A stretch of 57,063 bases of DNA from an uncultured virus (IMG/VR IMGVR_UViG_3300042863_002514) (IMGVR_UViG_3300042863_002514:62001-119063); one strand, 5' to 3'. Shown: positions 1,340 to 43,348, counted from the first letter of the stretch. The notes: generated by a model from the sequence alone, not told the origin. Numbers and translations are program-made.

Positions 1340-1831
1340 TTATTTGTTCAAAATGCTCAAGGCTTTTGCTAAGCTGGCTTTGTCAAAACCATGATCAGGA
1401 TGTGTTCTCACATAATTGGTTTTCAAATACAAGATGGCTGGGTTGTCATCTATTGCTACCCAAGTGTCAATCTCAGGATGATCAGCAATCCAGTTCAAAA
1501 CTTCTTGACCCCGATTTGACCCTTGCTGTCTAGGAGTCATGTAATTGCCTTCACTGGGATCATCGTATTCAAATATACAGGAAGGATCAATACCATTGCG
1601 CATGAGACAATTGCTGACTTCACTAACACTGTGTCCCTCAGCCCAACTTGTGCTGAGAACTATTTCAGCATGAGTTGCCTTGAGCAAGGCATTCAAATTT
1701 TTCACACAACTGGGATTGAATACAACTTTAGAGAGATAGTTATTGGTAGTCAGTCCCTGCTCTGCTTGCTCTCTAGCATCAGGATCAGGTAATAACACGC
1801 CGTCAAAGTCTAAAAACACTATCTTGGTCAT
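1340..1831 (-). CDS. HAD-family phosphatase (RNA-repair-associated HAD type)
   Basis: FLDFDGVL, LSTSW, RGQEV..W, VAIDD motifs. Confidence 0.8.
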   Translation of the reverse strand: MTKIVFLDFDGVLLPDPDAREQAEQGLTTNNYLSKVVFNPSCVKNLNALLKATHAEIVLSTSWAEGHSVSEVSNCLMRNGIDPSCIFEYDDPSEGNYMTPRQQGSNRGQEVLNWIADHPEIDTWVAIDDNPAILYLKTNYVRTHPDHGFDKASLAKALSILNK

Positions 1832-8920: not shown

Positions 8921-8994
8921 TGGTGGCACCAGTGAGATTTGAACTCACACCACTGGATTTAGAGTCCAGCTGACTACCTTTGTCTTATGGGGCC
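8921..8994 (-). tRNA. tRNA with CUA anticodon (amber suppressor)
   Basis: Cloverleaf GGCCCCA...CTGGA CT CTA AA TCCAG...GTGAG TTCAAAT CTCAC TGGTGCC A CCA; anticodon at 8960-8962. Confidence 0.85.
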
Positions 8995-10736: not shown

Positions 10737-10810
10737 TGGACACACCAGGGCTCGAACCTGGAACAAGACCGTTATGAGCGGCCGACTCTAACCAATTGAG
10801 CTATGCGTCC
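10737..10810 (-). tRNA. tRNA-Ile2 (CAU, lysidine substrate)
   Basis: GGCCG CT CAT AA CGGTC arm; lies directly downstream of tilS. Confidence 0.8.
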
Positions 10811-10850
10811 TTATCAACTGCTCATATAATATGCGCTAAATCGCAGTCTG

Positions 10851-11459
10851 TCAACTATTTTCTGTTTGCATGCTTTGAAGAACCAGCCGCTTGACCACCT
10901 TCCTCAAGCCTGGATTGACCTTGAGTGCCTCCGGTACAATCTTATGACGAATGTGATTCCGCATATACTTCAAATCTTTATTGCTCTCATCCTCAACCCA
11001 AGGCACCTCATGTCTCACACACCAACTTTCAAACACACTCTTGGGTGTGGTGAGAAAGGGTCGCACCACATTGTTCCGCCACATGGGAATGGTGTGTGTT
11101 TTCCCATGCAAACAGTTGAAGAGATAGGTCTCCACACAATCATCTAGATGATGCCCTGTTACCACAACTCCTTCGATGCTGTGCAAAAACTCATATCGAC
11201 TGTTGCGCCAATGTTCTTCCATTGAAACCCCTTTGGGGCACGCATCAACCAAAAAATCCACTCGCATGGGAATGGAGTTCTCATAACAGTATGTGCTGAG
11301 AAAGCTCAACGCTTTTGAACTTGTTTCGGTGTCATGATGAAAAAAACACACAGTGACGTTGTGCCGGAGGCGCAAAAAATCCAGCACCGCCATGCTGTCT
11401 ACACCACCGCTACACGCTACCCCCAGTTCTCGAGGCAACTTGGCCAGCAACTTGAACAC
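10851..11459 (-). CDS. tilS: tRNA(Ile)-lysidine synthetase (short form)
   Basis: SGGVDSM, R..RY.F, TGHHLDD..ET, RPFL, DESN...Y.RN.IR. Confidence 0.93.
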   Translation of the reverse strand: MFKLLAKLPRELGVACSGGVDSMAVLDFLRLRHNVTVCFFHHDTETSSKALSFLSTYCYENSIPMRVDFLVDACPKGVSMEEHWRNSRYEFLHSIEGVVVTGHHLDDCVETYLFNCLHGKTHTIPMWRNNVVRPFLTTPKSVFESWCVRHEVPWVEDESNKDLKYMRNHIRHKIVPEALKVNPGLRKVVKRLVLQSMQTENS

Positions 11460-15114: not shown

Positions 15115-15906
15115 CTAGCCCACAGCCCTCTCTAGGGCCCGTATCCCTTCTAACCCACCGGCAGAGATTCCTAAATCACTTGTACGTGAAGTTTCAAACT
15201 CATGTGGATTGATGCGAATCAAGTTAGTGGTGCGTTCTTGACCAAAGATCCTAATGCTGGGGATTCCAGTTCCTGCACCAATTTCAATACCCAAAACCTC
15301 CATCTTTGATGCTGCCCAATTCCGAAAATTTTCTTGACCTTGATCAATTTGTGTCCAAACAATCCCTGGGTCGTTGAACATCAGCACATTTGGTCGAGCA
15401 TTCTTGTTGCAGTAGGGGCATTTGGGGATTTCCTGTTCTGAGGTGAGCAGGGAAGAAAATTTTGGCATAGAGGGTAAGTTTCGGCAACAGGGTTGAGTGC
15501 ACTGAATTTTTCGCAGATTGCCATGTATCTCATAGAGATATTGTGGGTCATAACCAGCTTTCAAAAAATGGCCATCAACATTACTGGTTACTACAAAACT
15601 TTTTTTGTTGTGTGATTGTAGGAGATCCAGGAGGATCTTGTAACCCTCATGTGGGACAGTGTCTTGATATTTAATCATGCGGCCAACGTAAAAGTTCCAA
15701 GCCTCAAGGGGATTGGTGTCAAAACTTTTGGCTGTAGCTTTCTTGAGAAAGTTTTCTTTGGCCTCGGTCCACAAGCCTGTGGCGCCTCGAAAATCTGGCA
15801 AGCCACTGTCTACACTCATGCCGGCACCAGCCAAGATCACAATTCCTTCGGCTTGATGCCATAATTCTTTTATGCGTTGGGTTTGATCGGGGGTGAGTGG
15901 TTGCAT
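15115..15906 (-). CDS. Sir2/CobB-family NAD-dependent deacylase
   Basis: GAGMSVDSGLPDFRG, TSNVDGH, EIHG, CxxC/CPxC, RPNVLMF. Confidence 0.93.
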   Translation of the reverse strand: MQPLTPDQTQRIKELWHQAEGIVILAGAGMSVDSGLPDFRGATGLWTEAKENFLKKATAKSFDTNPLEAWNFYVGRMIKYQDTVPHEGYKILLDLLQSHNKKSFVVTSNVDGHFLKAGYDPQYLYEIHGNLRKIQCTQPCCRNLPSMPKFSSLLTSEQEIPKCPYCNKNARPNVLMFNDPGIVWTQIDQGQENFRNWAASKMEVLGIEIGAGTGIPSIRIFGQERTTNLIRINPHEFETSRTSDLGISAGGLEGIRALERAVG

Positions 15907-15938: not shown

Positions 15939-16062
15939 TGGCGGACCCGGAGGGATTCGAACCCCCATCGAAGAGCTTAGGAGCGGTCCCCAAGGATTCG
16001 AACCTTGAATGCTACCTGCGGGACCGGAAGGCTCTTGCCTTATCCAATTAGACCACGGATCC
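15939..16062 (-). tRNA. tRNA-Arg (UCU or CCU) interrupted by a 47-nt tRNA-like insert in the anticodon loop
   Basis: GGATCCG/CGGGTCC G CCA acceptor, GGATA D-loop, AGAGC/GCTCT anticodon stem. Removing ~15982-16028 gives a 77-nt cloverleaf. Confidence 0.85.
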
Positions 16063-16192: not shown

Positions 16193-16278
16193 TGGAGCGG
16201 CGTATCGGATTCGAACCGATGGAACCTATTCGCCTCAAGTTTGGAAGACTTGTGCTCTAACCCCTGAGCTAACGCCGC
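16193..16278 (-). tRNA. tRNA-Gly (UCC) with long variable region
   Basis: CAAGT CT TCC AA ACTTG; U73, CCA; 15-nt variable region. Confidence 0.85.
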
Positions 16279-17829: not shown

Positions 17830-17972
17830 TGCCTCAGCCCATTGAAGATTTTGAGAGCTGGTTCAATGTTTTTGGCACCTACAATGTTGATTCAGAGAGT
17901 GGCAAACGTGCTTTGTTTGCCTGCCAAAAAGAGTTGGAAGACTCTGGCGTAGGACTGCATGCAAGATGGTAA
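17829..17972 (+). pseudogene. internally deleted LRR-array member (47 aa)
   Basis: MPQPIEDFESWFNVFGTYNVDSES fused directly to GKRALFACQKELEDSGVGLHARW. Confidence 0.75.
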
Positions 17973-18622
17973 GTGATGTGGAATATGAACAAACCAAAAC
18001 CATCTTGAGCCAGAACTTCAAGATAGAGAGCAATGCCTTATATCCAGCTGGTTGGATGTTTGATCAAGATGGTAAGATTGTTGTGGCTGGTGACTTACAC
18101 CTAACGCGGCCTCAATCTCAGTTACCTTTGCGTTTCAGTAAGGTGCATGGTACCTTCACCTGCAACAACAAGAATCTAAGAACCTTGGAAGGATGCCCAT
18201 TTGAGATTGAAGGAGATTTCGACGCCAGCTTCAACTTGCTATCAAAGTTAACCAGTTTTCCGCATTGGGTCAGTGGCAGTATCCTTCTCAATAGCAACAA
18301 GTTGACTTCTCTACAAGGTTTGCCGGACACAGTATCTGACAATCTGGAGATTCAAGACAACCCACTGGAGTCACTTGACCACTTGCCCAAGAGCATTGCT
18401 TGGGTAACATTGACGTATAGTCCCACAATACCACTGTTGAGAACATTAGGAGCCTTGCATGTGGACCTTATTGTGCCTATGCAATATAAGCGAGGAAACG
18501 AAGGAAAATTCCAGCAGTTACATAAAATTTTGAACAGTTATGCAGGCAAAGGCAAACGTGCTTTGTTTGACTGCCAAAAAGAATTGGAAGATGCGGGTTT
18601 TGAGGAAAATGCACGATGGTAA
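17966..18622 (+). CDS. variable LRR protein, array A member 1
   Basis: 21-aa N.L..L.G.P..V.G.F.C repeats; C-terminal cap GKRALFDCQKELEDAGFEENARW. Confidence 0.85.
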   Translation: MVSDVEYEQTKTILSQNFKIESNALYPAGWMFDQDGKIVVAGDLHLTRPQSQLPLRFSKVHGTFTCNNKNLRTLEGCPFEIEGDFDASFNLLSKLTSFPHWVSGSILLNSNKLTSLQGLPDTVSDNLEIQDNPLESLDHLPKSIAWVTLTYSPTIPLLRTLGALHVDLIVPMQYKRGNEGKFQQLHKILNSYAGKGKRALFDCQKELEDAGFEENARW

Positions 18623-19437
18623 ACCAGGAATTCCCACAAGACAAAACAACTGTTCGTCAGTTACTGAATGAATACTTTGGTTGGGAAAGTACCCTTTTCA
18701 CTATACATGATACAGGTGTTGTAGATGCTCATGGATCAATTTTGTTGAGCAAAGAGACCTCTCGATTGCCTGTGAGATTTGGAGTGGTGGAAGGCAATTT
18801 TCTCTGTCACAGGAACAAGTTGGAAACACTTGAAGGCTGTCCTCACACTGTCTTGGACACATTTGATTGCAGTGAAAACCAGTTGATCAGCTTGGTTGGT
18901 GGCCCAAAAACAGTAAAAGGACAATATTCTTGCCAGAATAATAAACTCTCAGATTTGTTGGGAAGTCCACGAGACTTTACACAAGAATACATTGCATACA
19001 ACAACAATTTAGTGAGTTTGCGAGGTGCTCCCCTGCAAATAGGTGGTATGTTTGATGTCAGTAAAAATCTCTTGACTGATCTTCAAGACGCACCACAGAC
19101 CGTGGAATATTTTTGGGCAACCAACAACAAGCTCACAACACTCAAAGGTGCCTCTTTGAATATTTCCAAGCAGTTTATTTTTGATCACAATCCCTTGGAA
19201 AATCTTGAGGGGTTAGGCTCCCAAACTCCTGATTTGATTGAAGTCAGTTACAAATCCGATTTGCCCTTGTTACGGCTTTTGGTAGCCCAGAAGGTCAATT
19301 TTTGGCCTGTGCTGTGGGGCAAGTATATTCAAGTGGAAACCATCTTGAAAAAATACGCAGGCCAGGGCAAACGAGCCCTGTTTGACTGTCAAAAAGAATT
19401 GGAAGACGCAGGATTTGAAAGGAACGCCAAATGGTAG
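18616..19437 (+). CDS. variable LRR protein, array A member 2
   Basis: same repeat and cap; ATGGTAA overlap. Confidence 0.85.
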   Translation: MVNQEFPQDKTTVRQLLNEYFGWESTLFTIHDTGVVDAHGSILLSKETSRLPVRFGVVEGNFLCHRNKLETLEGCPHTVLDTFDCSENQLISLVGGPKTVKGQYSCQNNKLSDLLGSPRDFTQEYIAYNNNLVSLRGAPLQIGGMFDVSKNLLTDLQDAPQTVEYFWATNNKLTTLKGASLNISKQFIFDHNPLENLEGLGSQTPDLIEVSYKSDLPLLRLLVAQKVNFWPVLWGKYIQVETILKKYAGQGKRALFDCQKELEDAGFERNAKW

Positions 19438-20030
19438 ACAAAAGGGAAATTTTGGAACTGTTGGCAGAGTATTTTTTCTTTGAGCCAAATGACGCTGTGA
19501 AATTTGACATAGGTCCTGAGGGCTTGGTTAATGTGCTTGAGCTGACTCCTGGTCGCGGCCATCTCCGCACTATTAAGGACAAACCCTTCCCTGGAGGTCA
19601 GTTGCCTGTGAGATTTGGCTTGTTCAAAGCCAGCTTAAAATTGGACCGGAATCAAATCGTGGACTTGGTTGGTTGTCCCCCTGTAATCCAAGGCAATTTT
19701 GTTGCACTTGGCAATCAATTGAAAAATTTCAAGGGTGGGCCCAAAGAAGTCACAGGTAGGTTTTGGCTTGGGATGCAGAAAAACCTATTAGAGAGTTTGG
19801 ATGGTTTTCCTGATAGGGTGGGTGACTATGCTAAACTGCCTTACCATGACAAGTTGCCGCTGCTGCGCACGTTAGCTTGCCAAGATGGTGTAATATTGAG
19901 CTCATCATCCTTTAACACTAATCCCATTGAAGAAATAATTGAAAAATACAAAGGACAGGGCAAGCGTGCCCTGTTTGAATGTCAAAAAGATCTAGAGGAT
20001 GCTGGATTTGAAGGAAATGCAAGATGGTAG
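19431..20030 (+). CDS. variable LRR protein, array A member 3
   Basis: same repeat and cap. Confidence 0.85.
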   Translation: MVDKREILELLAEYFFFEPNDAVKFDIGPEGLVNVLELTPGRGHLRTIKDKPFPGGQLPVRFGLFKASLKLDRNQIVDLVGCPPVIQGNFVALGNQLKNFKGGPKEVTGRFWLGMQKNLLESLDGFPDRVGDYAKLPYHDKLPLLRTLACQDGVILSSSSFNTNPIEEIIEKYKGQGKRALFECQKDLEDAGFEGNARW

Positions 20031-20629
20031 ACAAACAAGAAGTTCAGCACATGTTGAACACTTATTTTCGTAATGGTGAGGCAGACAACCGGGTGCGCTT
20101 TCAAATTGAAGATAGTGGTATAGTAAATGTGCAGGAGATCACACCAGGATATGGTGTGCTCTTGGCCATACAAGGACCGTTTCCCAATGGAAAACTGCCT
20201 GTAAAATTTGGCGTTTGCCATGCCAGTTTGATTTTAGACAGATGTGGACTCTCCAGTCTTGAAGGTTGTCCGCAGATTGTGGGAGGCAGATTCACTGCCA
20301 ACAAAAATCCTTTGAAAGACATGACAGGTGGGCCCCTTGAGGTTTCAGGTCGTGTGGGATTTAGACAAGAGGTTCCAGTGTTGAGTCTTGCTGGGTTTCC
20401 CCAACGAGTAGGCCAACACTTGAGCATAAATTATCACAATAAATTGCCCTTGCTTCGAGCTTTGAACTGCCAACAGGGCCTAATGCTGTATGCCCACAAT
20501 GTTATGCAAAGCAAACTTCTAACAATTGAAGGAATATTTTACAAATACGCAGGACAAGGCAAACGTGCCCTGTTTGATTGCCAAAAAGAACTGGAAGATG
20601 CGGGCTTTGAAGGAAATGCAAGATGGTAG
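20024..20629 (+). CDS. variable LRR protein, array A member 4
   Basis: same repeat and cap; closest to member 3. Confidence 0.85.
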   Translation: MVDKQEVQHMLNTYFRNGEADNRVRFQIEDSGIVNVQEITPGYGVLLAIQGPFPNGKLPVKFGVCHASLILDRCGLSSLEGCPQIVGGRFTANKNPLKDMTGGPLEVSGRVGFRQEVPVLSLAGFPQRVGQHLSINYHNKLPLLRALNCQQGLMLYAHNVMQSKLLTIEGIFYKYAGQGKRALFDCQKELEDAGFEGNARW

Positions 20630-21282
20630 ACGTCAAACAGCATGTGTTGAACACGCTAACTCAACATTTCATGGTAGATGGGGACCCCATTGTTGATCCA
20701 GCTGGCAAAGTCAGTGTCATGGGAGACGTTGTGTTATACAACAAATTTCACAGTTCTTTTCAAGAACTACCGGTGAAATTTTCTCACATTGAAGGCAGTA
20801 TGATGCTCAGCATCAACCAACTCAAGACACTAGAGGGTTGTCCAGAAACTGTTGGTAAGAATTTTGAGTGTGACAATAATGAACTCAAAAGTTTGAAGTT
20901 TGGACCCAAAACAATAGGCACGACACAAACACCCACATTTGGCGGCAGTTATAATTGCAGTAAAAATCAATTGAAGGATTTGGAAGGGGCACCTAGAGAA
21001 ATCCCCAGTGTGTTCAATTGTTCAGCCAATCCTCTAGAGAGCTTGCAGGGCTTTCCTCAAAAAATTGGAGATAGTTTGTATATCACTTATGATACTCAGC
21101 TGCCTTTGTTGCGCACATTGGTGGCACCAGAGATTATTTTTTGGCCGTATCAAAGCGAGGGCAGCGATGCCTGGAAGGTGTTATACATTTTGGAAAAATA
21201 TTTGGGGCAAGGAAAACGTGTTATGTTTGATTGTCAAAAAGAATTGGAAGATGCCGGATTTGAGGACAACGCCAGATGGTAA
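20623..21282 (+). CDS. variable LRR protein, array A member 5
   Basis: same repeat and cap. Confidence 0.85.
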   Translation: MVDVKQHVLNTLTQHFMVDGDPIVDPAGKVSVMGDVVLYNKFHSSFQELPVKFSHIEGSMMLSINQLKTLEGCPETVGKNFECDNNELKSLKFGPKTIGTTQTPTFGGSYNCSKNQLKDLEGAPREIPSVFNCSANPLESLQGFPQKIGDSLYITYDTQLPLLRTLVAPEIIFWPYQSEGSDAWKVLYILEKYLGQGKRVMFDCQKELEDAGFEDNARW

Positions 21283-21914
21283 ACAAACGAGAAATCTTGC
21301 AGTTATTGAAAGACCATTTCAGCTTTGACTACAACAGTGCAAAAGTTTCATCAGATGGACTGGTAACAGTAAATGGCGATATTCAATTGTTGAATCTCCA
21401 CTATACACGTTTTGAAAAACTGCCAGTTGCCTTCAAAGCTGTAACTGAAAATCTATCGTTAGATGAGAACGCACTAGTAACCTTGGAAGGCTGTCCCCCT
21501 GAAGTGGGCGTGAGTTTTGACTGTTCACGTAACATGCTCAAAAGCCTTAGTGGGGGGCCAGAAATTGTAGGTTGGAACTACTACTGTGACCATAATCAAC
21601 TTGTTGATTTGAAGGGGGCACCTGTCCAGATACCCAATAATTTCAATTGCATTGGTAATCCGTTGAAAAGCTTGGATGGATTTCCGTTGAAAGTGGAAAA
21701 TGCAGCTTGGTTACCGTATCTACCACATTTGCCTCTCTTACGTACCTTGGCAGCAAGGCATATATTTTTAGAGCCTGCTGACGACACTCACACTGTGGAG
21801 AAGGGAAAAGTGCAGACAATTTTGAACAAATATGCTGGCCAAGGCAAACGTGCCATGTTTGATTGCCAAAAAGATTTGGAAGACGCTGGATTTGAGGATC
21901 ATGCAAAATGGTAG
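21276..21914 (+). CDS. variable LRR protein, array A member 6
   Basis: same repeat and cap. Confidence 0.85.
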   Translation: MVNKREILQLLKDHFSFDYNSAKVSSDGLVTVNGDIQLLNLHYTRFEKLPVAFKAVTENLSLDENALVTLEGCPPEVGVSFDCSRNMLKSLSGGPEIVGWNYYCDHNQLVDLKGAPVQIPNNFNCIGNPLKSLDGFPLKVENAAWLPYLPHLPLLRTLAARHIFLEPADDTHTVEKGKVQTILNKYAGQGKRAMFDCQKDLEDAGFEDHAKW

Positions 21915-22525
21915 ACGTTGATAACATCAAAAAAACTTTTGATGATTATTTTCAATGTAATGAAAGCATTGTAATCAATTCTGATGGAACAATAAGCACA
22001 AAAGGTTACGTAACGCTTATGTTGCATGTTAAGAAGTTGCCAGTTGGCTTTTATGAAGTGGAAGGATTTGATGTGGGGGGCATGGGGCTCACAAGCCTTC
22101 AAGGATCTCCCAAATATGTCTACAATGAATTTCGTTGTACTGAGAACAATTTACAAACTCTTGAAGGCGGTCCTGATGCTGTTGGCGAACACTACTTATG
22201 TGGGTTCAACCAGCTCAAGAGCTTGCAAGGTGCACCCAAAAAAGTTCTTGGATCTTTGAGTTGTGTGGGCAATCCACTTGAAAGTCTTGAAGGCATACCG
22301 CAAGAAGGTTTAGGGCGACTAGTGTTACAATATTCGCCCACTTTGCCTTTGCTACGTGCATTGGTTGCCAAAAAAATTGTATTCATGCATAGGGTTGATG
22401 AATCGGAGCCACCCCAGAAGGTTCAAGAAATCATGAACAAATATGCAGGTCAAGGCAAAGCTGCCATGTTTGACTGCCAAAAAGATTTGGAAGACTCTGG
22501 ATTTGAAGGAAATGCACGATGGTAG
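21908..22525 (+). CDS. variable LRR protein, array A member 7
   Basis: same repeat and cap. Confidence 0.85.
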   Translation: MVDVDNIKKTFDDYFQCNESIVINSDGTISTKGYVTLMLHVKKLPVGFYEVEGFDVGGMGLTSLQGSPKYVYNEFRCTENNLQTLEGGPDAVGEHYLCGFNQLKSLQGAPKKVLGSLSCVGNPLESLEGIPQEGLGRLVLQYSPTLPLLRALVAKKIVFMHRVDESEPPQKVQEIMNKYAGQGKAAMFDCQKDLEDSGFEGNARW

Positions 22526-23271
22526 ATCTAGCCGGGATCAAAAAAACTTTTGACAAATATTACTCTCACACAGGTAAACTCTCTGTTGATCCCAACACAG
22601 GATTGATATCCTGCACAGGCAGTGTCAAGAGCAAGGAGAAATCTTACCTTGATGGTAAGCCAGGTATAAAAACCTTGCGGGTAAGGTTTGGAAAAATACG
22701 CTACGATTTTGCTGTACAGCATACCGATCTGGTGAGTCTAGAAGGCGCACCCTCTTGGGTAGGTAGAGATTTCAAGTGTGGCCACAACCAACTCACCAGT
22801 TTGTTGGGTTCGCCTCAACATGTGGGCGGAGATTTCAAATGCGATAATAACAACATAGAAAGCCTTGAACACTGTCCCAAATCAGTTGGTGCCAATTTCT
22901 CTTGTATGACAAATCAACTCTCATCACTGGAACATGTTCCTGAGAAAGTGCATGATTTGTTTTGCATGGAAAACAAACTAGTCTCACTACACGGTGCACC
23001 AAAAACCATCACTGGCGAGTTGAGAGCATGGGGTAATCAGCTAGAGTCACTTGAAGGAATGCCTACTGAAGTAAGGGTTTTATGGATTGACTACAGCCCC
23101 ACTCTGCCGCTCTTGCGTTGTTTAAATGCTAAAAAACTGTGGTCGGGTATGGGATGGCCACACGAGGTGCGGGCTATTCTGCAAAAGTATATGGGTCAAG
23201 GCAAACGTGCCATGTTTGACTGCCAAAAAGAACTGGAAGATGCTGGATTTGAAGGGAATGCAAGATGGTAG
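22519..23271 (+). CDS. variable LRR protein, array A member 8
   Basis: same repeat and cap. Confidence 0.85.
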   Translation: MVDLAGIKKTFDKYYSHTGKLSVDPNTGLISCTGSVKSKEKSYLDGKPGIKTLRVRFGKIRYDFAVQHTDLVSLEGAPSWVGRDFKCGHNQLTSLLGSPQHVGGDFKCDNNNIESLEHCPKSVGANFSCMTNQLSSLEHVPEKVHDLFCMENKLVSLHGAPKTITGELRAWGNQLESLEGMPTEVRVLWIDYSPTLPLLRCLNAKKLWSGMGWPHEVRAILQKYMGQGKRAMFDCQKELEDAGFEGNARW

Positions 23272-23870
23272 ACAAAAAAGAAGTAATGGCTTTGTTGAAA
23301 GCTAATTTCAAAACAACAGGCCAAGTCACAATAGATCCTGAGGGGTTGATCACTTGCCAGGGTAATGTTATACTTAAAAGACAATTACCCCAGTTCCCTG
23401 TGCGTTTCAAGAGTGTTCTTGGACACTTCCAGTGCGATTACAACCAACTAACCACACTGGACGGGGCGCCAGAGAGTGTTGGTGGAAGTTTCTTAGGCTC
23501 AAGTAACCAACTTATTTCACTTAAAGCTGCACCCAAGAATGTGGTTGGAAGTTTCGTATGCTTCAACAACCAACTGACTTCACTGGAAGGTGCTCCCAGC
23601 AGTGTTGGTGATCTTTTTAGTTGTCACCTCAACCCATTAACCTCACTCCAAGGTATGCCTTCAGAGCTCAATTACTTGGCTATACCTTACACGCCTACTC
23701 TTCCACTGCTCCGTTGTTTGGCAGCCAAAAGTATCTCGTTGCGGTCAGCAATGAATCACACGACTGTTGAAACAATCTTGAACAAATACGCAGGACAAGG
23801 CAAACGTGCCATGTTTGATTGTCAAAAAGAACTAGAAGATGCTGGATTTGAGGATAATGCAAGATGGTAA
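23265..23870 (+). CDS. variable LRR protein, array A member 9
   Basis: same repeat and cap. Confidence 0.85.
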   Translation: MVDKKEVMALLKANFKTTGQVTIDPEGLITCQGNVILKRQLPQFPVRFKSVLGHFQCDYNQLTTLDGAPESVGGSFLGSSNQLISLKAAPKNVVGSFVCFNNQLTSLEGAPSSVGDLFSCHLNPLTSLQGMPSELNYLAIPYTPTLPLLRCLAAKSISLRSAMNHTTVETILNKYAGQGKRAMFDCQKELEDAGFEDNARW

Positions 23871-26003: not shown

Positions 26004-26354
26004 TTATTTTTTCTTGAGATACACCCGGAAGGCCCCACCACCTGGCAAACTTTCCACACGCTGCACAGCTGGATTCTTCTCCAACCAATGTGAAAATTCC
26101 TGTTGCATCAATCCACTTTTGCCAGTGATGAAGGTTAGACTGGGAAAATGTTTGTTTGACACTTGTTCAATAGTTCTTTGATAGGCTTCGCTCAAGGTCA
26201 TGCCATGTAAATCCCAAGTGTGAAGGGGATTATGGTATGACGAACTTGTTTTTGGGAGAGACTGAGGCAAGGGGACTTGAGTTGCAGTGGTTAATGGCTT
26301 AACCCCTTGCATCACCTGTTGCCACAGCTTCTTGTCCTCGTCTCGTAGTGGCAT
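26004..26354 (-). CDS. Smr-domain protein
   Basis: DLHGMT..EA, ITGKSG, WL, GGGAF.V. Confidence 0.9.
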   Translation of the reverse strand: MPLRDEDKKLWQQVMQGVKPLTTATQVPLPQSLPKTSSSYHNPLHTWDLHGMTLSEAYQRTIEQVSNKHFPSLTFITGKSGLMQQEFSHWLEKNPAVQRVESLPGGGAFRVYLKKK

Positions 26355-26363
26355 GAGTTGAAG

Positions 26364-26945
26364 TCAAGTGCGCTCAAGAGCGTAGGGATCAGTTGCGAAC
26401 CAAATACTTAACGTAAATCTGTTCCCACCCTCAACAGGTGTGACACCATGCGTGCAACGGTCATCACTGGCAAAAATCACTATCCGCCCCTTACGAGGTG
26501 CTGAGCTATAGTATTCACCACGTTCATTTTTTATAAACGTCACTCCGCCTTGATAGTCGTCGTTGAGATAGGTAACAGATGACCAAACTCGAGGACGGAG
26601 ATTGCTGTCGTCAGTGTAACCATTGTCTTTGTGTTCATGCATTTGTCGTCCAGGCCGCCACAGCACTAAGTCAGTGTAGTTGGGGTAGGCAAATTGCCTT
26701 GTGACTTGATATACCAACTGACTACAGGTGAAGCGATACGCCTCTATAGCACGTTTGACTGTGATGTCTTGTATTTGGTTATAAGGCAAGTCGTCTTGGT
26801 CTTCCCAAGGCATGCGACCATCAATACTGGGTTGATTACTGAATTTTAAAAGGCTCATGTGGTCCTGTAACAGACTGCAAAGACTGTCGCTCATAGCCCC
26901 ATCAAAACTCCAAATGAGATTGCTGTAGGTTTGAAGCTGTTGCAT
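26364..26945 (-). CDS. 2OG-Fe(II) oxygenase (prolyl-hydroxylase-like)
   Basis: HKD, YLNDDYQGG, HGVTPV..G.R. Confidence 0.9.
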   Translation of the reverse strand: MQQLQTYSNLIWSFDGAMSDSLCSLLQDHMSLLKFSNQPSIDGRMPWEDQDDLPYNQIQDITVKRAIEAYRFTCSQLVYQVTRQFAYPNYTDLVLWRPGRQMHEHKDNGYTDDSNLRPRVWSSVTYLNDDYQGGVTFIKNERGEYYSSAPRKGRIVIFASDDRCTHGVTPVEGGNRFTLSIWFATDPYALERT

Positions 26946-26964
26946 TGTTGCTGCCTTTCAATTA

Positions 26965-27127
26965 TGGTGCCGGATGTCAGTTTCGAACTGACCACCTATT
27001 GATTACCATTTGGCGTACTGGCTTTAGGCCAGTGTTGCCCACAAACAACTGGTAAATTTATTCACCAGTTGGTGGCATTATCCCGCCACGGAAAAATCAA
27101 TTGCTCTACCAAATGAGCTAATCCGGC
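26965..27127 (-). tRNA. tRNA-Thr (UGU or GGU) interrupted by an 87-nt structured insert in the anticodon loop
   Basis: GCCGGAT/ATCCGGC A CCA acceptor, ATTGA/TCAAT anticodon stem. Removing ~27008-27094 gives a 76-nt cloverleaf. Confidence 0.85.
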
Positions 27128-27179
27128 ACAGTACATAGTATATAGCAGCATCTTGCTAGCTGCAAATGATCCATGCAGG

Positions 27180-27440
27180 CTATTCGTCCCATTTTCCCCA
27201 GCTGAGTAAAAATGCTGCTCGATCTTCTTCTGTTTTAAACAACACTTCTGGCTCAAGATAGGTCCAGCAGACGTCACAAGGACCAAAAGTTTCTTCCATG
27301 AACCTGAACATCAAATGGCCTTGTCCTGGACTATACGATGGCGCAAGTGCATAGGGAAACTGTTTTCGAACCCATTTTCTTGCAGCAGTGATTTCCTCAC
27401 TTGTGGGAGCCACTCTAGTAGAAGTGATATTCATTCTCAA
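27180..27440 (-). CDS. small protein, F-x7-F-x-L-x-W family
   Basis: C-terminal FKTEEDRAAFLLSW. Confidence 0.65.
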   Translation of the reverse strand: MRMNITSTRVAPTSEEITAARKWVRKQFPYALAPSYSPGQGHLMFRFMEETFGPCDVCWTYLEPEVLFKTEEDRAAFLLSWGKWDE

Positions 27441-27473
27441 TTATATGGGCGTCCACTAGGCTGTGTCAACGAA

Positions 27474-27563
27474 CGGAAGTGGTGGGATTCGAACCCACGG
27501 AAGACATTCCTGCCTTCGCTGGTTTTCAAGACCAGTGCATTAGAGCCGCTCTGCCACACTTCC
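27474..27563 (-). tRNA. tRNA-Ser (UGA)
   Basis: CTGGT CT TGA AA ACCAG; long variable arm. Confidence 0.92.
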
Positions 27564-27881
27564 TTAAACTTTGGTGTGAACCATTGCACGTATCTCCGTC
27601 AGCAATTGATTGTTTTGCCGCTCCAGACTTTTGATACGCTCGTCCATTTCTTTGATGCCTCTATTGCCAGTGTTCTGCAATAGGAACACCATCAAAAACG
27701 TAACAATGGTTGTGCTGGTATTGATTACCAGCTGCCATGTGTCACTGAATCCAAACACTGGCCCCAGCAAGGCCCATAATACAACTGAACCTGCTGCGCT
27801 CAAAAACGCATATGGGTGACCCAAATTGGCGCTGATCCACTCAGCCAAAATCTCAAACCTATTCTTGATAAATTTACGCAT
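27564..27881 (-). CDS. low-affinity iron permease family protein
   Basis: W...GP.F.FSDTWQLVINT.TTIVTFLMVFL.QN. Confidence 0.88.
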   Translation of the reverse strand: MRKFIKNRFEILAEWISANLGHPYAFLSAAGSVVLWALLGPVFGFSDTWQLVINTSTTIVTFLMVFLLQNTGNRGIKEMDERIKSLERQNNQLLTEIRAMVHTKV

Positions 27882-31034: not shown

Positions 31035-31055
31035 TTATTGTCTTGACGTTAAATC

Positions 31056-31160
31056 GCCATCGCCGGATGCCACTTCCGGATTTCTTCACCAGCTAGGTGA
31101 TTGCTGCCGGCTAGTTACCATTCTCATGGTGTGTTGGGAGGCTGTTCCAACCTCGATGGC
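31056..31160 (-). ncRNA. multibranch structured RNA inside the tRNA cluster
   Basis: GCCATCG/CGATGGC closing stem enclosing four hairpins. Confidence 0.5.
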
Positions 31161-31182
31161 AATTGTTGGTTGAGAGAATAGT

Positions 31183-42673: not shown

Positions 42674-43348
42674 TCACAACCAAAGCTTGTAAATTTCGCC
42701 TTTGAGATAACTTTCCGCAGTGCAACGTTTGCCTGTGCGATGGTCCACAGCTGAGTCATGTTGAATTTGGATAGTGCGTATTTTATCTCCGCGCTGGCCG
42801 CTACCAACCTGATGTTTTCTTTCTTGGCTGGTTTGAGAGGCTGCTTGGCTCTTGAACCTGTTTTGAAGTCGTGTCTCCAATTCCTGCCTAGCTTGTGCAA
42901 AGCTAGTGGTTCTGCTTCTTGTTTGGGCGGTAACGACTACCCCAGTTGGTGTGTGTCGCAATCTACAACTGGCCATTACCTTATTTCGATTTTGACCACC
43001 GGGACCAGTGCCAGAAAACCACTCTATTACTAGATCTTTGTCAAGTATTTCAATGGCTTGTTCTGAAGGATACTCTAGCACTGCTACTGTGACTGTACTG
43101 GTATGGACTCTTCCACGTCTTTCAGTTGGTGGAACCCTCTGTATCCTATGCCCACCTGCTTCTTGTGCCCACTGTGAAAGATCTTGTCCCTCTAGTTTGA
43201 TAACACAGAAGCCTGGGACCGTTTTAACTACAGTAGTGAGTCAACCCAGCTTGCTGGCCATGCGAATATAGGCACGTGCCAAATCATCAACAAACAGTTG
43301 ACTGTCTTCTCCGCCCTCAGCTTGGCGTATTTCAATGTATTGAATCAT
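42674..43348 (-). CDS. RF1-like peptide chain release factor lacking domain 1, with an in-frame UGA at codon 36 (43241-43243)
   Basis: IEIRQAEGGEDSQLF...RMASKLG*LT...EAGGHRIQRVPPTERRGRVHTS...GPGGQNRNK...RGDKIRT, all in one frame. Confidence 0.85.

Follow-up and report, generated by a model that had tools for sequence, protein, structure and literature searches.

What is the 87-nt insert that splits the anticodon loop of a phage tRNA-Thr gene, and could a tRNA still be made from a gene so divided? The locus that raises this question lies in the window, the 57,063-nt stretch of DNA analysed here, which is part of a 119-kb IMG/VR record that is itself contained in a longer, 309,756-bp contig from this phage (G001; 99.99% identity), estimated by CheckV to be 76% complete. 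The contig encodes proteins with a T4-like jumbo-phage signature (gp20 portal, gp23-like, gp25 and baseplate proteins) along with cyanophage-type auxiliary genes (heme oxygenase, bilin reductase, speD and NAD salvage). The phage comes from lake water and has a G+C content of 45%, and its 20 tRNA genes occupy one region on one strand. Among the 24 sequencing runs listed for this stretch, 20 are lake-water DNA runs that contain it, and none is an RNA run with the phage. Relatives of its portal protein form a large clade of freshwater jumbo phages, two complete members of which were examined. One (G002) is a 518,643-bp genome with terminal repeats and 56 tRNA genes, and the other (G004) is a 452,799-bp genome, rated 100% complete by CheckV, with 45 tRNA calls and a portal protein 64% identical to that of G001. 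Several related jumbo-phage portal proteins of 740-1000 aa (relatives of L153:172-1926) additionally contain an intein domain (PF14890).

The interrupted tRNA-Thr gene and its folded 87-nt insert are confirmed as real, and the parts of the locus are as follows.

26965..27127, minus strand: interrupted tRNA-Thr(UGU) gene, 163 nt, with encoded CCA (ARAGORN with introns, and sequence; excision in silico gives a 76-nt tRNA-Thr(tgt))
27094..27127, minus strand: 5′ exon, tRNA positions 1-34, last base U34 (comparison with at least 120 uninterrupted genes having the same anticodon arm)
27007..27093, minus strand: 87-nt insert (putative mini-intron), first letters UUCCGUG, last letters CCAAAUG (sequence, fold and the G004 homologue)
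26965..27006, minus strand: 3′ exon, tRNA positions 35-76, first bases G35 U36 (sequence, comparison and in-silico excision)
27072..27089, minus strand: hairpin 1, GUGGC/GCCAC, with a G-rich loop (fold; 2 of 6 pairs doubly changed in G004)
27046..27071, minus strand: hairpin 2, CAACTGGT../..ACCAGTTG, 11 pairs, with an A/U-rich top (fold; 4 of 11 pairs doubly changed in G004)
27012..27039, minus strand: hairpin 3, with an outer 3-bp stem, an inner 6-bp stem and a CUAAA loop, followed by a 5-nt tail to the 3′ junction (fold)

The acceptor stem has 7 bp and the anticodon stem 5 bp (ATTGA/TCAAT); a D arm, a T arm and a discriminator A complete the tRNA body, and 94 nt separate the anticodon-stem strands instead of the normal 7. 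An earlier note on this DNA had described a tRNA-Thr with intact exons and an 87-nt insert of three hairpins in the anticodon loop, and both the gene call and all three hairpins bear it out. ARAGORN run with introns reports 20 tRNA genes in the 119-kb record, two of them interrupted (Thr by an 87-nt and Arg by a 47-nt intron); run without the intron option, it reports 18 and misses the interrupted tRNA-Thr. The Rfam tRNA model scores the Arg gene at 43.8 bits and leaves the Thr gene below threshold. The fold of the whole tRNA-Thr gene has a minimum free energy of -65.8 kcal/mol (z -5.47) and that of the 87-nt insert alone -35.9 kcal/mol (z -4.06), values equalled in neither case by any of 200 shuffled sequences. 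Antisense folds are nearly as stable as sense folds, at -34.1 against -35.9 kcal/mol for the window insert and -24.0 against -28.6 kcal/mol for its homologue in G004. The inner stem of hairpin 3, ACTGGC/GCCAGT, spans 27017-27033.

This gene is the sole tRNA-Thr in the 309-kb contig. Three more IMG/VR contigs of the same phage carry it, all four sequences being identical over 291 common columns, and contigs from three of four lake-water DNA runs span it with 0 to 7 differences over 26898-27600. The only in-gene variant among the differences listed is a G>T change (plus strand) at window position 27015, present in two of the four runs, at an unpaired 2-nt bulge of hairpin 3.

The exact position of the insert follows from comparison with uninterrupted genes. 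A query consisting of both anticodon-stem flanks separated by a gap of 3-33 nt matches at least 120 loci in IMG/VR, and the gap is exactly 3 in all 120 of those listed, which are therefore all uninterrupted genes. The loop reads TTTGTAA in 109 of the 120 listed; the loop starts are TTT in 109, TTC in 5, CTT in 4 and TTA and CCT in 1 each, with GTAA following in every case. The stem and loops shared by these loci identify the arm as a common phage tRNA-Thr(UGU) anticodon arm. Since only a cut at U34/G35 restores the TTTGTAA loop, the insert corresponds to 27007-27093, and its excision by script leaves 76 nt that ARAGORN calls tRNA-Thr(tgt). On this comparison the insert lies between U34 and G35, and the anticodon of a mature product would be UGU. 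The choice between 33/34 and 34/35 that the initial reading of the locus had left ambiguous is thus settled, on the basis of at least 120 uninterrupted loci, in favour of 34/35, the register in which the insert ends in G and the anticodon is UGU.

Several candidates for an excised or intron-less form of the gene were rejected. No intron-less allele of the window locus appeared in four DNA runs. At the joints 26997>27102, and at a single joint 26995>27103, 17-20 other letters are present; these are tRNA-Thr(UGU) genes of other organisms. A further joint, 27006>27097, occurs in one run at depth 6, with 24 letters on its shorter side. It represents an uninterrupted tRNA-Thr whose stem is the same but whose loop reads CTTGTAA, which assigns it to a relative and rules out excision.

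A homologue of the insert is found in G004, where 95 nt interrupt a 170-nt gene that is the only tRNA-Thr(UGU) of that genome. ARAGORN misnames this gene as Tyr; its acceptor stem and 3′ exon are of the tRNA-Thr type, and its best matches among GenBank phages, at 95% identity, are annotated as tRNA-Thr. The G004 insert begins with UUCCGUG, contains GGCCUAAAGCC and finishes with the letters CCAAGAA, of which the last 5 nt are its tail. Its independently computed minimum-free-energy fold contains three hairpins in the same order as in the window, with a CUAAA loop on the third, and the 11 nt GGCCUAAAGCC in the top of hairpin 3 do not differ between the two inserts. A covariance model built from the window insert alone aligns the G004 insert over its full length, with a score of 15.3 bits and an E of 0.17 in 151 kb. 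On this alignment 93.4% of pairing cells are satisfied, against 28-38% with partners slid by 1-3 columns, and 8 of 26 pairs are changed on both sides between the window and G004, a number reached in 4 of 500 shuffles; these pair counts come from an alignment that was fitted to the model and so leans towards structure, and that contains one extra antisense row of hairpin 2. Sequence identity is 60/95 in the insert and 54/76 in the exons, and the junction strands between hairpins total 6 nt in the window insert versus 1 nt in G004. Within the limits of that model-fitted alignment, the G004 insert is homologous to the Thr insert of the window and carries compensatory changes, in a family known from only two distinct sequences. 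That a distant relative has a homologous insert in its tRNA-Thr points to constraint on the insert, and it disposes of the absence of homologous inserts, which the earlier note had named as grounds for abandoning its proposal. The other complete relative, G002, has five intact tRNA-Thr genes and no insert of the Thr type.

The two inserts occupy different positions in the same loop. The window copy sits at 34/35 and splits the loop 3+4, while the G004 copy sits at 36/37 and splits it 5+2; in both phages the insert runs from UUCCGUG to 5 nt past the closing pair of hairpin 3, and its excision yields the same 7-nt loop and a tRNA-Thr(tgt). One possible account of the shifted site is that an enzyme measures from the insert structure and selection keeps the loop pieces. 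It is also possible that the element entered the loop twice, and hence is mobile and targeted to this loop. Random junk fits neither account. Entry on two occasions would weaken the case that intact exons prove selection: homologous inserts at different loop positions may represent separate, possibly recent, insertions, and a separate insertion leaves the loop intact by construction and is silent on selection. The proposal that undegraded exons suggest selection for removal is accordingly not compelling by itself.

Searches for further members of the family lead back to these two phages. An exact-stem pattern has no match in bacterial genomes or metagenome contigs, and in IMG/VR it matches this phage alone; exon patterns run against IMG/VR find no loci with gaps of 4-34 nt and only the same phage with gaps of 66-96 nt. 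The exact anticodon arm has no other insert of 1-31 or 63-93 nt in IMG/VR. A motif pattern returns 21 loci from IMG/VR, five of them real; the other 16 are chance matches with no tRNA, as are all 120 loci of a motif scan of bacterial genomes. Sixteen metagenome-contig loci considered as members proved to be 15 chance matches and one tandem tRNA pair. An acceptor-stem pattern gives five loci, all within the two lineages already found. A covariance model (R2) applied to 50 portal-related records, most of them fragments without the tRNA cluster and drawn from more than 400 relatives in IMG/VR, recovers G004 alone, its two weak matches being coding sequence. GenBank phages match only the exons, and a search with the neighbouring oxygenase protein returns only the same phage. 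Of two further ARAGORN calls, an interrupted tRNA-Lys in G004 is spurious and an 83-nt 'Gly(acc)' in G002 was judged false. The insert is a conserved structured element specific to tRNA anticodon loops, and so far the family is known only from such loops in a clade of freshwater T4-like jumbo phages.

Each of the two phages carries a second, shorter insert in an anticodon loop.

15939..16062, minus strand: second interrupted tRNA (Arg), with a 47-nt insert (Rfam, ARAGORN with introns, and sequence)
L251:7389-7506 in G004, minus strand: tRNA-Asn(GUU) with 43 nt inserted in its anticodon loop; the insert ends in GGUCCAAGA, as does the Thr insert of G004

The Arg insert contains a tRNA-like minihelix, in which an acceptor-like stem (GGTCCC/GGGACC) surrounds a hairpin with a TTCGAAT loop. 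Its boundaries are ambiguous between 32/33 and 35/36, leaving the anticodon as CCU or UCU, and for this reason the suggestion that the Thr insert occupies the same site as the Arg insert cannot be fixed. That the two are unrelated, as was also suggested, holds in that they have no alignable similarity and fails in that they have a 5′ UUCCG in common, as well as a terminal bulged hairpin with a 4-5-nt tail. Indeed all four inserts (two Thr, Arg and Asn), as read from their sequences, end in an outer stem, a bulged inner hairpin, a return strand and a tail of 4-5 nt. Each phage has a SIR2-family gene immediately downstream of one of its interrupted tRNAs: at 15115-15906 (minus strand) in the window, after the Arg gene, and at 399890-400630 (within L250/L251) in G004, after the Thr gene; the two proteins are 59% identical.

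Other features of these phages were noted as well. A tRNA of amber-suppressor type (anticodon CUA, labelled Pyl by ARAGORN) is encoded at window 8921-8994 (minus strand) and twice in tandem in G004 (L404:152-307, plus strand); ORF statistics give no sign of TAG recoding in the window phage. A PP-loop (TilS-like) ATPase gene at window 10737-11393 (minus strand) adjoins a tRNA with a CAU anticodon and is possibly part of a phage lysidine system for AUA codons. Long variable arms, unusual for their isotypes, are present in an 86-nt tRNA-Gly(UCC) at window 16193-16278 (minus strand) and in an 87-nt tRNA-Lys(UUU) of G004 (L405:229-315, minus strand), upstream of which lies a hairpin resembling the 5′ half of a tRNA folded on itself. 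Within the tRNA region there is also a match to skipping-rope RNA (RF02924) at window 31055-31161 (minus strand; score 44.5 bits, gathering score 36.7). Window 17966-23870 (plus strand) contains nine consecutive ORFs with overlapping stop and start codons, each about 200-270 aa long and lacking a Pfam match; lake-run contigs show many skips and back-joints there, as expected of a strain-variable array of tandem paralogues. A 100-aa RF-1-domain protein of ArfB or peptidyl-tRNA-hydrolase type is encoded at window 42677-42976 (minus strand; 34.6 bits against a Pfam cut-off of 35), and the phage further encodes IF-1 and shows a weak match to PTH2 (28.9 bits, with no stretch passing alone).

Comparison of the Thr insert with group I introns, bulge-helix-bulge introns, known ribozymes and multi-copy repeats points away from each of them. 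The insert had been judged too small for a group I core, and a search of Rfam intron and ribozyme models had been proposed. No core is present: the group I model RF00028 has no match at gathering score in the whole 309-kb contig and none at E up to 10 around either copy, and the intron and ribozyme families, including hammerhead, twister, pistol, hatchet and HDV-like, have none at E up to 10 in either copy. A group I ribozyme acting in trans was considered and dropped, there being none in the 309-kb contig. The junction bases are of group I type in the window (U34 and a last base G), but the likeness to a group I junction that had been remarked upon is no family rule, since the homologue sits at 36/37 with U36 before the insert and A as its last base. 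A bulge-helix-bulge (BHB) motif, sought by hand as two 3-nt bulges 4 bp apart, could form 1 of 4 central pairs in the window and 3 of 4 in G004, in the latter with no outer helix. No Pfam domain of an EndA/Sen splicing endonuclease occurs in 335 ORFs (76 + 150 + 109) of the 76%-complete 309-kb contig, in a scan that left out twelve ORFs crossing piece borders. No further copy of the insert is found in 309 kb, where short-word BLAST returns itself and chance words of up to 13 nt, and it is single copy in G004 as well. No Y1 or other transposase lies beside it, domain scans showing only one distant resolvase; the Thr insert does not have the multiple copies, transposase and non-tRNA sites of MITE or IS200/IS605-type elements. 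Excision by RNase P and RNase Z was considered for the Arg minihelix and rejected, as the predicted cuts need further trimming to give a 7-nt loop; a minihelix is, besides, lacking from the Thr insert. Complementarity over 7 nt between the D loop and the 3′ end of the insert was likewise set aside because it is not conserved in G004.

The phage encodes several proteins that could act on a cut tRNA, and a promoter-like box precedes the gene.

27137..27166, minus strand: sigma-70-like promoter match, TTTGCA, 18 nt, TATACT (consensus match; ends 10 nt upstream of the tRNA 5′ end)
1343..1831, minus strand: HAD phosphatase (HAD_SAK_2, 'Swiss Army Knife' RNA-repair type)
26007..26354, minus strand: 116-aa protein with an Smr domain (DLHG and GKxG motifs intact), encoded two genes downstream of the tRNA-Thr

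Similar promoter-like boxes are present at similar distances from the intact single tRNA genes of the window. The 309-kb contig encodes an Rnl1-like RNA ligase with the tRNA-specific T4_Rnl1_C domain (E 4e-26 to PDB 2c5u) and a kinase + metallophosphoesterase protein of the end-healing (Pnkp-like) type, along with a second RNA ligase and RlaP; RtcB is absent from it. These phage healing and sealing enzymes could reseal a cut anticodon loop. RNA-repair genes of this sort are common in T4-like phages for other reasons, and the Rnl1 family is present in G002 too, a phage without the Thr insert, which makes the ligase evidence circumstantial. For the cutting step the Smr-domain protein is, by inference, a candidate endoribonuclease. 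Smr cuts leave 5′-OH ends. The protein is encoded in G001 and G004 and not in G002, a pattern of presence common to 38 ORFs across the three genomes. Known Smr nucleases are described as RNA endonucleases that act on mRNA at collided ribosomes (bioRxiv 10.1101/2021.08.16.456513).

The best explanation for the interrupted gene, to which we assign a probability of roughly 0.45, is protein-dependent cutting followed by sealing by Pnkp-like and Rnl1-like phage enzymes. Transcription from the gene's own promoter would produce a 163-nt precursor, in which the insert would fold as three hairpins atop the anticodon stem. A protein endonuclease may recognise the shape of the insert and cut 5′ of UUCCGUG and 5 nt past hairpin 3, after which a kinase/phosphoesterase and a T4 Rnl1-like ligase would reseal the anticodon loop to give tRNA-Thr(UGU). 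Counting for splicing are the outcome of U34/G35 excision, namely the loop of 109 of the 120 listed genes in a canonical 76-nt tRNA; the common cut rule by which the ends of the insert give the same loop in both phages; the status of the gene as sole tRNA-Thr in the 309-kb contig and in the complete G004 genome; and the second anticodon-loop insert in each phage, which looks like a habit of the lineage. Insert conservation, base pairing, single copy number, the presence of the enzymes and the promoter-like box count in the same direction. Against splicing, we know of no bacterial or phage enzyme that excises a tRNA intron other than group I, and the lack of a BHB, the family of two sequences, the shifted loop site, the Rnl1 of G002 and the near-equal antisense fold weigh on the same side, as do the sharing of the Smr pattern by 38 ORFs and the action of Smr on mRNA. 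A bolder and rather doubtful extension is that this clade of jumbo phages has a full tRNA splicing pathway of its own, based on proteins and working inside a bacterial cell, that serves small mobile introns at varying loop positions, with an endonuclease (the Smr-domain protein being one candidate) using the terminal hairpin as a ruler and Pnkp-like and Rnl1-like enzymes rejoining the exons. If this were true, the genes that large phages carry for 'RNA repair' would also serve in splicing, and the same explanation would apply to the enigmatic introns of Lak phages.

The conserved structure and loops, which fit any RNA-level function, would also suit an RNA that is never spliced. The 163-nt transcript would then be final, a tRNA-Thr scaffold that displays a three-hairpin domain, for example to a binding partner or as a decoy, and never decodes. 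A tRNA frame, an encoded CCA and a promoter-like box are appropriate to a stable tRNA-like RNA, no removal machinery is known, and species 1 RNA of phage T4 provides a precedent. We nonetheless regard this outcome as unlikely, because a mimic has no need of anticodon-loop pieces, yet both homologues keep 7 of 7 loop letters, differently split, between exons that are only 54/76 identical, and in both phages the gene is the sole tRNA-Thr within an otherwise coherent tRNA set. A different way to dispense with removal, and one we consider improbable, is that selfish or stray DNA inactivated an accessory tRNA so recently that the exons still look intact. No target duplication accompanies the insertion, which is clean; more than 120 phage genes that share the anticodon arm are free of the insert, which was found in two lineages only, at different positions suggestive of separate events; phage tRNAs are dispensable; and the near-equality of sense and antisense folds means that the hairpins may be recognised at the DNA level. 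Stray DNA is harder to reconcile with a single copy in 309 kb and in 453 kb, with no copy found outside tRNA (the 16 IMG/VR and 120 bacterial motif matches being chance) and no adjoining Y1 or other transposase. Nor would it be expected to keep its structure through 8 double changes over approximately 37% sequence divergence, or, if untargeted, to enter the same 7-nt loop of the same tRNA species twice.

Least probable of the readings spelled out here is a new small self-splicing or self-cleaving RNA, in which UUCCGUG, the loop motifs and the top of hairpin 3 would together be the catalytic core, cleaving at both junctions, and joining would come about by reversal of the cut or by a ligase. 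Conserved single-stranded motifs at the 5′ end and in the loops would be in keeping with such a core, as would the U at -1 and the final G of the window copy, and an RNA that reverse-splices into exposed loops would be expected at two loop positions. At 87-95 nt, however, the insert is far below the size of any group I core, and no Rfam intron or ribozyme family matches (E up to 10 for either copy, gathering score in 309 kb). The junction strands between hairpins, moreover, are not conserved (6 nt vs 1 nt), and the last base of the homologue is A rather than G. The remainder of the probability, beyond splicing by proteins, an unspliced final RNA, an inert insertion and self-splicing, belongs to something else.

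The general view is that self-splicing group I introns are the only tRNA introns of bacteria and their viruses, and it is with systems on either side of this boundary that the Thr insert has to be compared. Archaeal BHB tRNA introns are short, spliced by protein and defined by local RNA shape rather than sequence, and they have spread to non-canonical positions, with intron transposition reported in the Thermoproteales. The occurrence of homologous introns at different tRNA positions is a likeness to the inserts described here, which differ in having no BHB at either junction pair and no splicing-endonuclease domain in 335 ORFs, and in belonging to a bacterial-type phage with an encoded CCA. 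With group I introns the insert shares its insertion point, 34(U)/35, as well as the U before the 5′ junction and the final G of the window copy; unlike them it has no catalytic core, and its homologue ends in A and follows U36. Its length is less than half that of the smallest group I introns. The 34/35 site is used by the group I introns of bacterial tRNA-Leu(UAA) ('Leu.3Ug', cyanobacterial) (Williams 2020, bioRxiv 10.1101/2020.01.27.920355).

The closest known counterparts are the unexplained tRNA introns of the Lak megaphages, termed 'enigmatic' by Devoto et al. (2019, PMC6784885), whose Supplementary Table 6 gives inserts of 79-141 nt with 'no hit in rfam'. A full-text literature search found no paper that explains them. 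In the Lak phages, as here, small inserts (79-141 nt vs 87-95 nt) interrupt the anticodon loops of tRNA genes in very large phages, match no Rfam family, are conserved in sequence among related phages and affect several tRNAs per genome, including tRNA-Thr(TGT). By eye, the inserts of that table show a hairpin at the 5′ end, then an A/U linker, then a tRNA-like minihelix whose loop is T-arm-like, a layout that the Arg insert of the window matches; the Thr insert, in contrast, has no T-arm-like minihelix and consists of three plain hairpins, the one by the 3′ junction having a 5-nt CUAAA loop. The sites differ as well, being at about 37/38 in the Lak examples and at 34/35 (36/37 in G004) here. 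The phages are unrelated, with 26% G+C and a gut habitat in the Lak source against 45% G+C and lake water for the T4-like phage, and comparison by eye reveals no sequence similarity between these Lak inserts and the Thr insert.

The nearest enzymatic parallel is the repair system of T4, to which the Rnl1-like ligase of this phage, bearing the tRNA-specific C-terminal domain, and its end-healing enzyme correspond. In T4, Pnkp and Rnl1 repair host tRNA after anticodon-nuclease attack and are not known to remove an intervening sequence. The two Thr inserts are, to our knowledge, the first known pair of diverged homologues of such inserts with compensatory changes; they add an unrelated phage clade and a second structural type to the small tRNA inserts of phages, and place the same element at two loop positions of one tRNA species. 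The removal or other role of such inserts is now open to experiment, the 163-nt substrate being defined and the candidate phage enzymes few. If splicing is shown, these phages would provide a third natural route to tRNA splicing, and phage RNA-repair genes would gain a new role; if the RNA stays unspliced, they would provide a conserved tRNA-scaffolded RNA.
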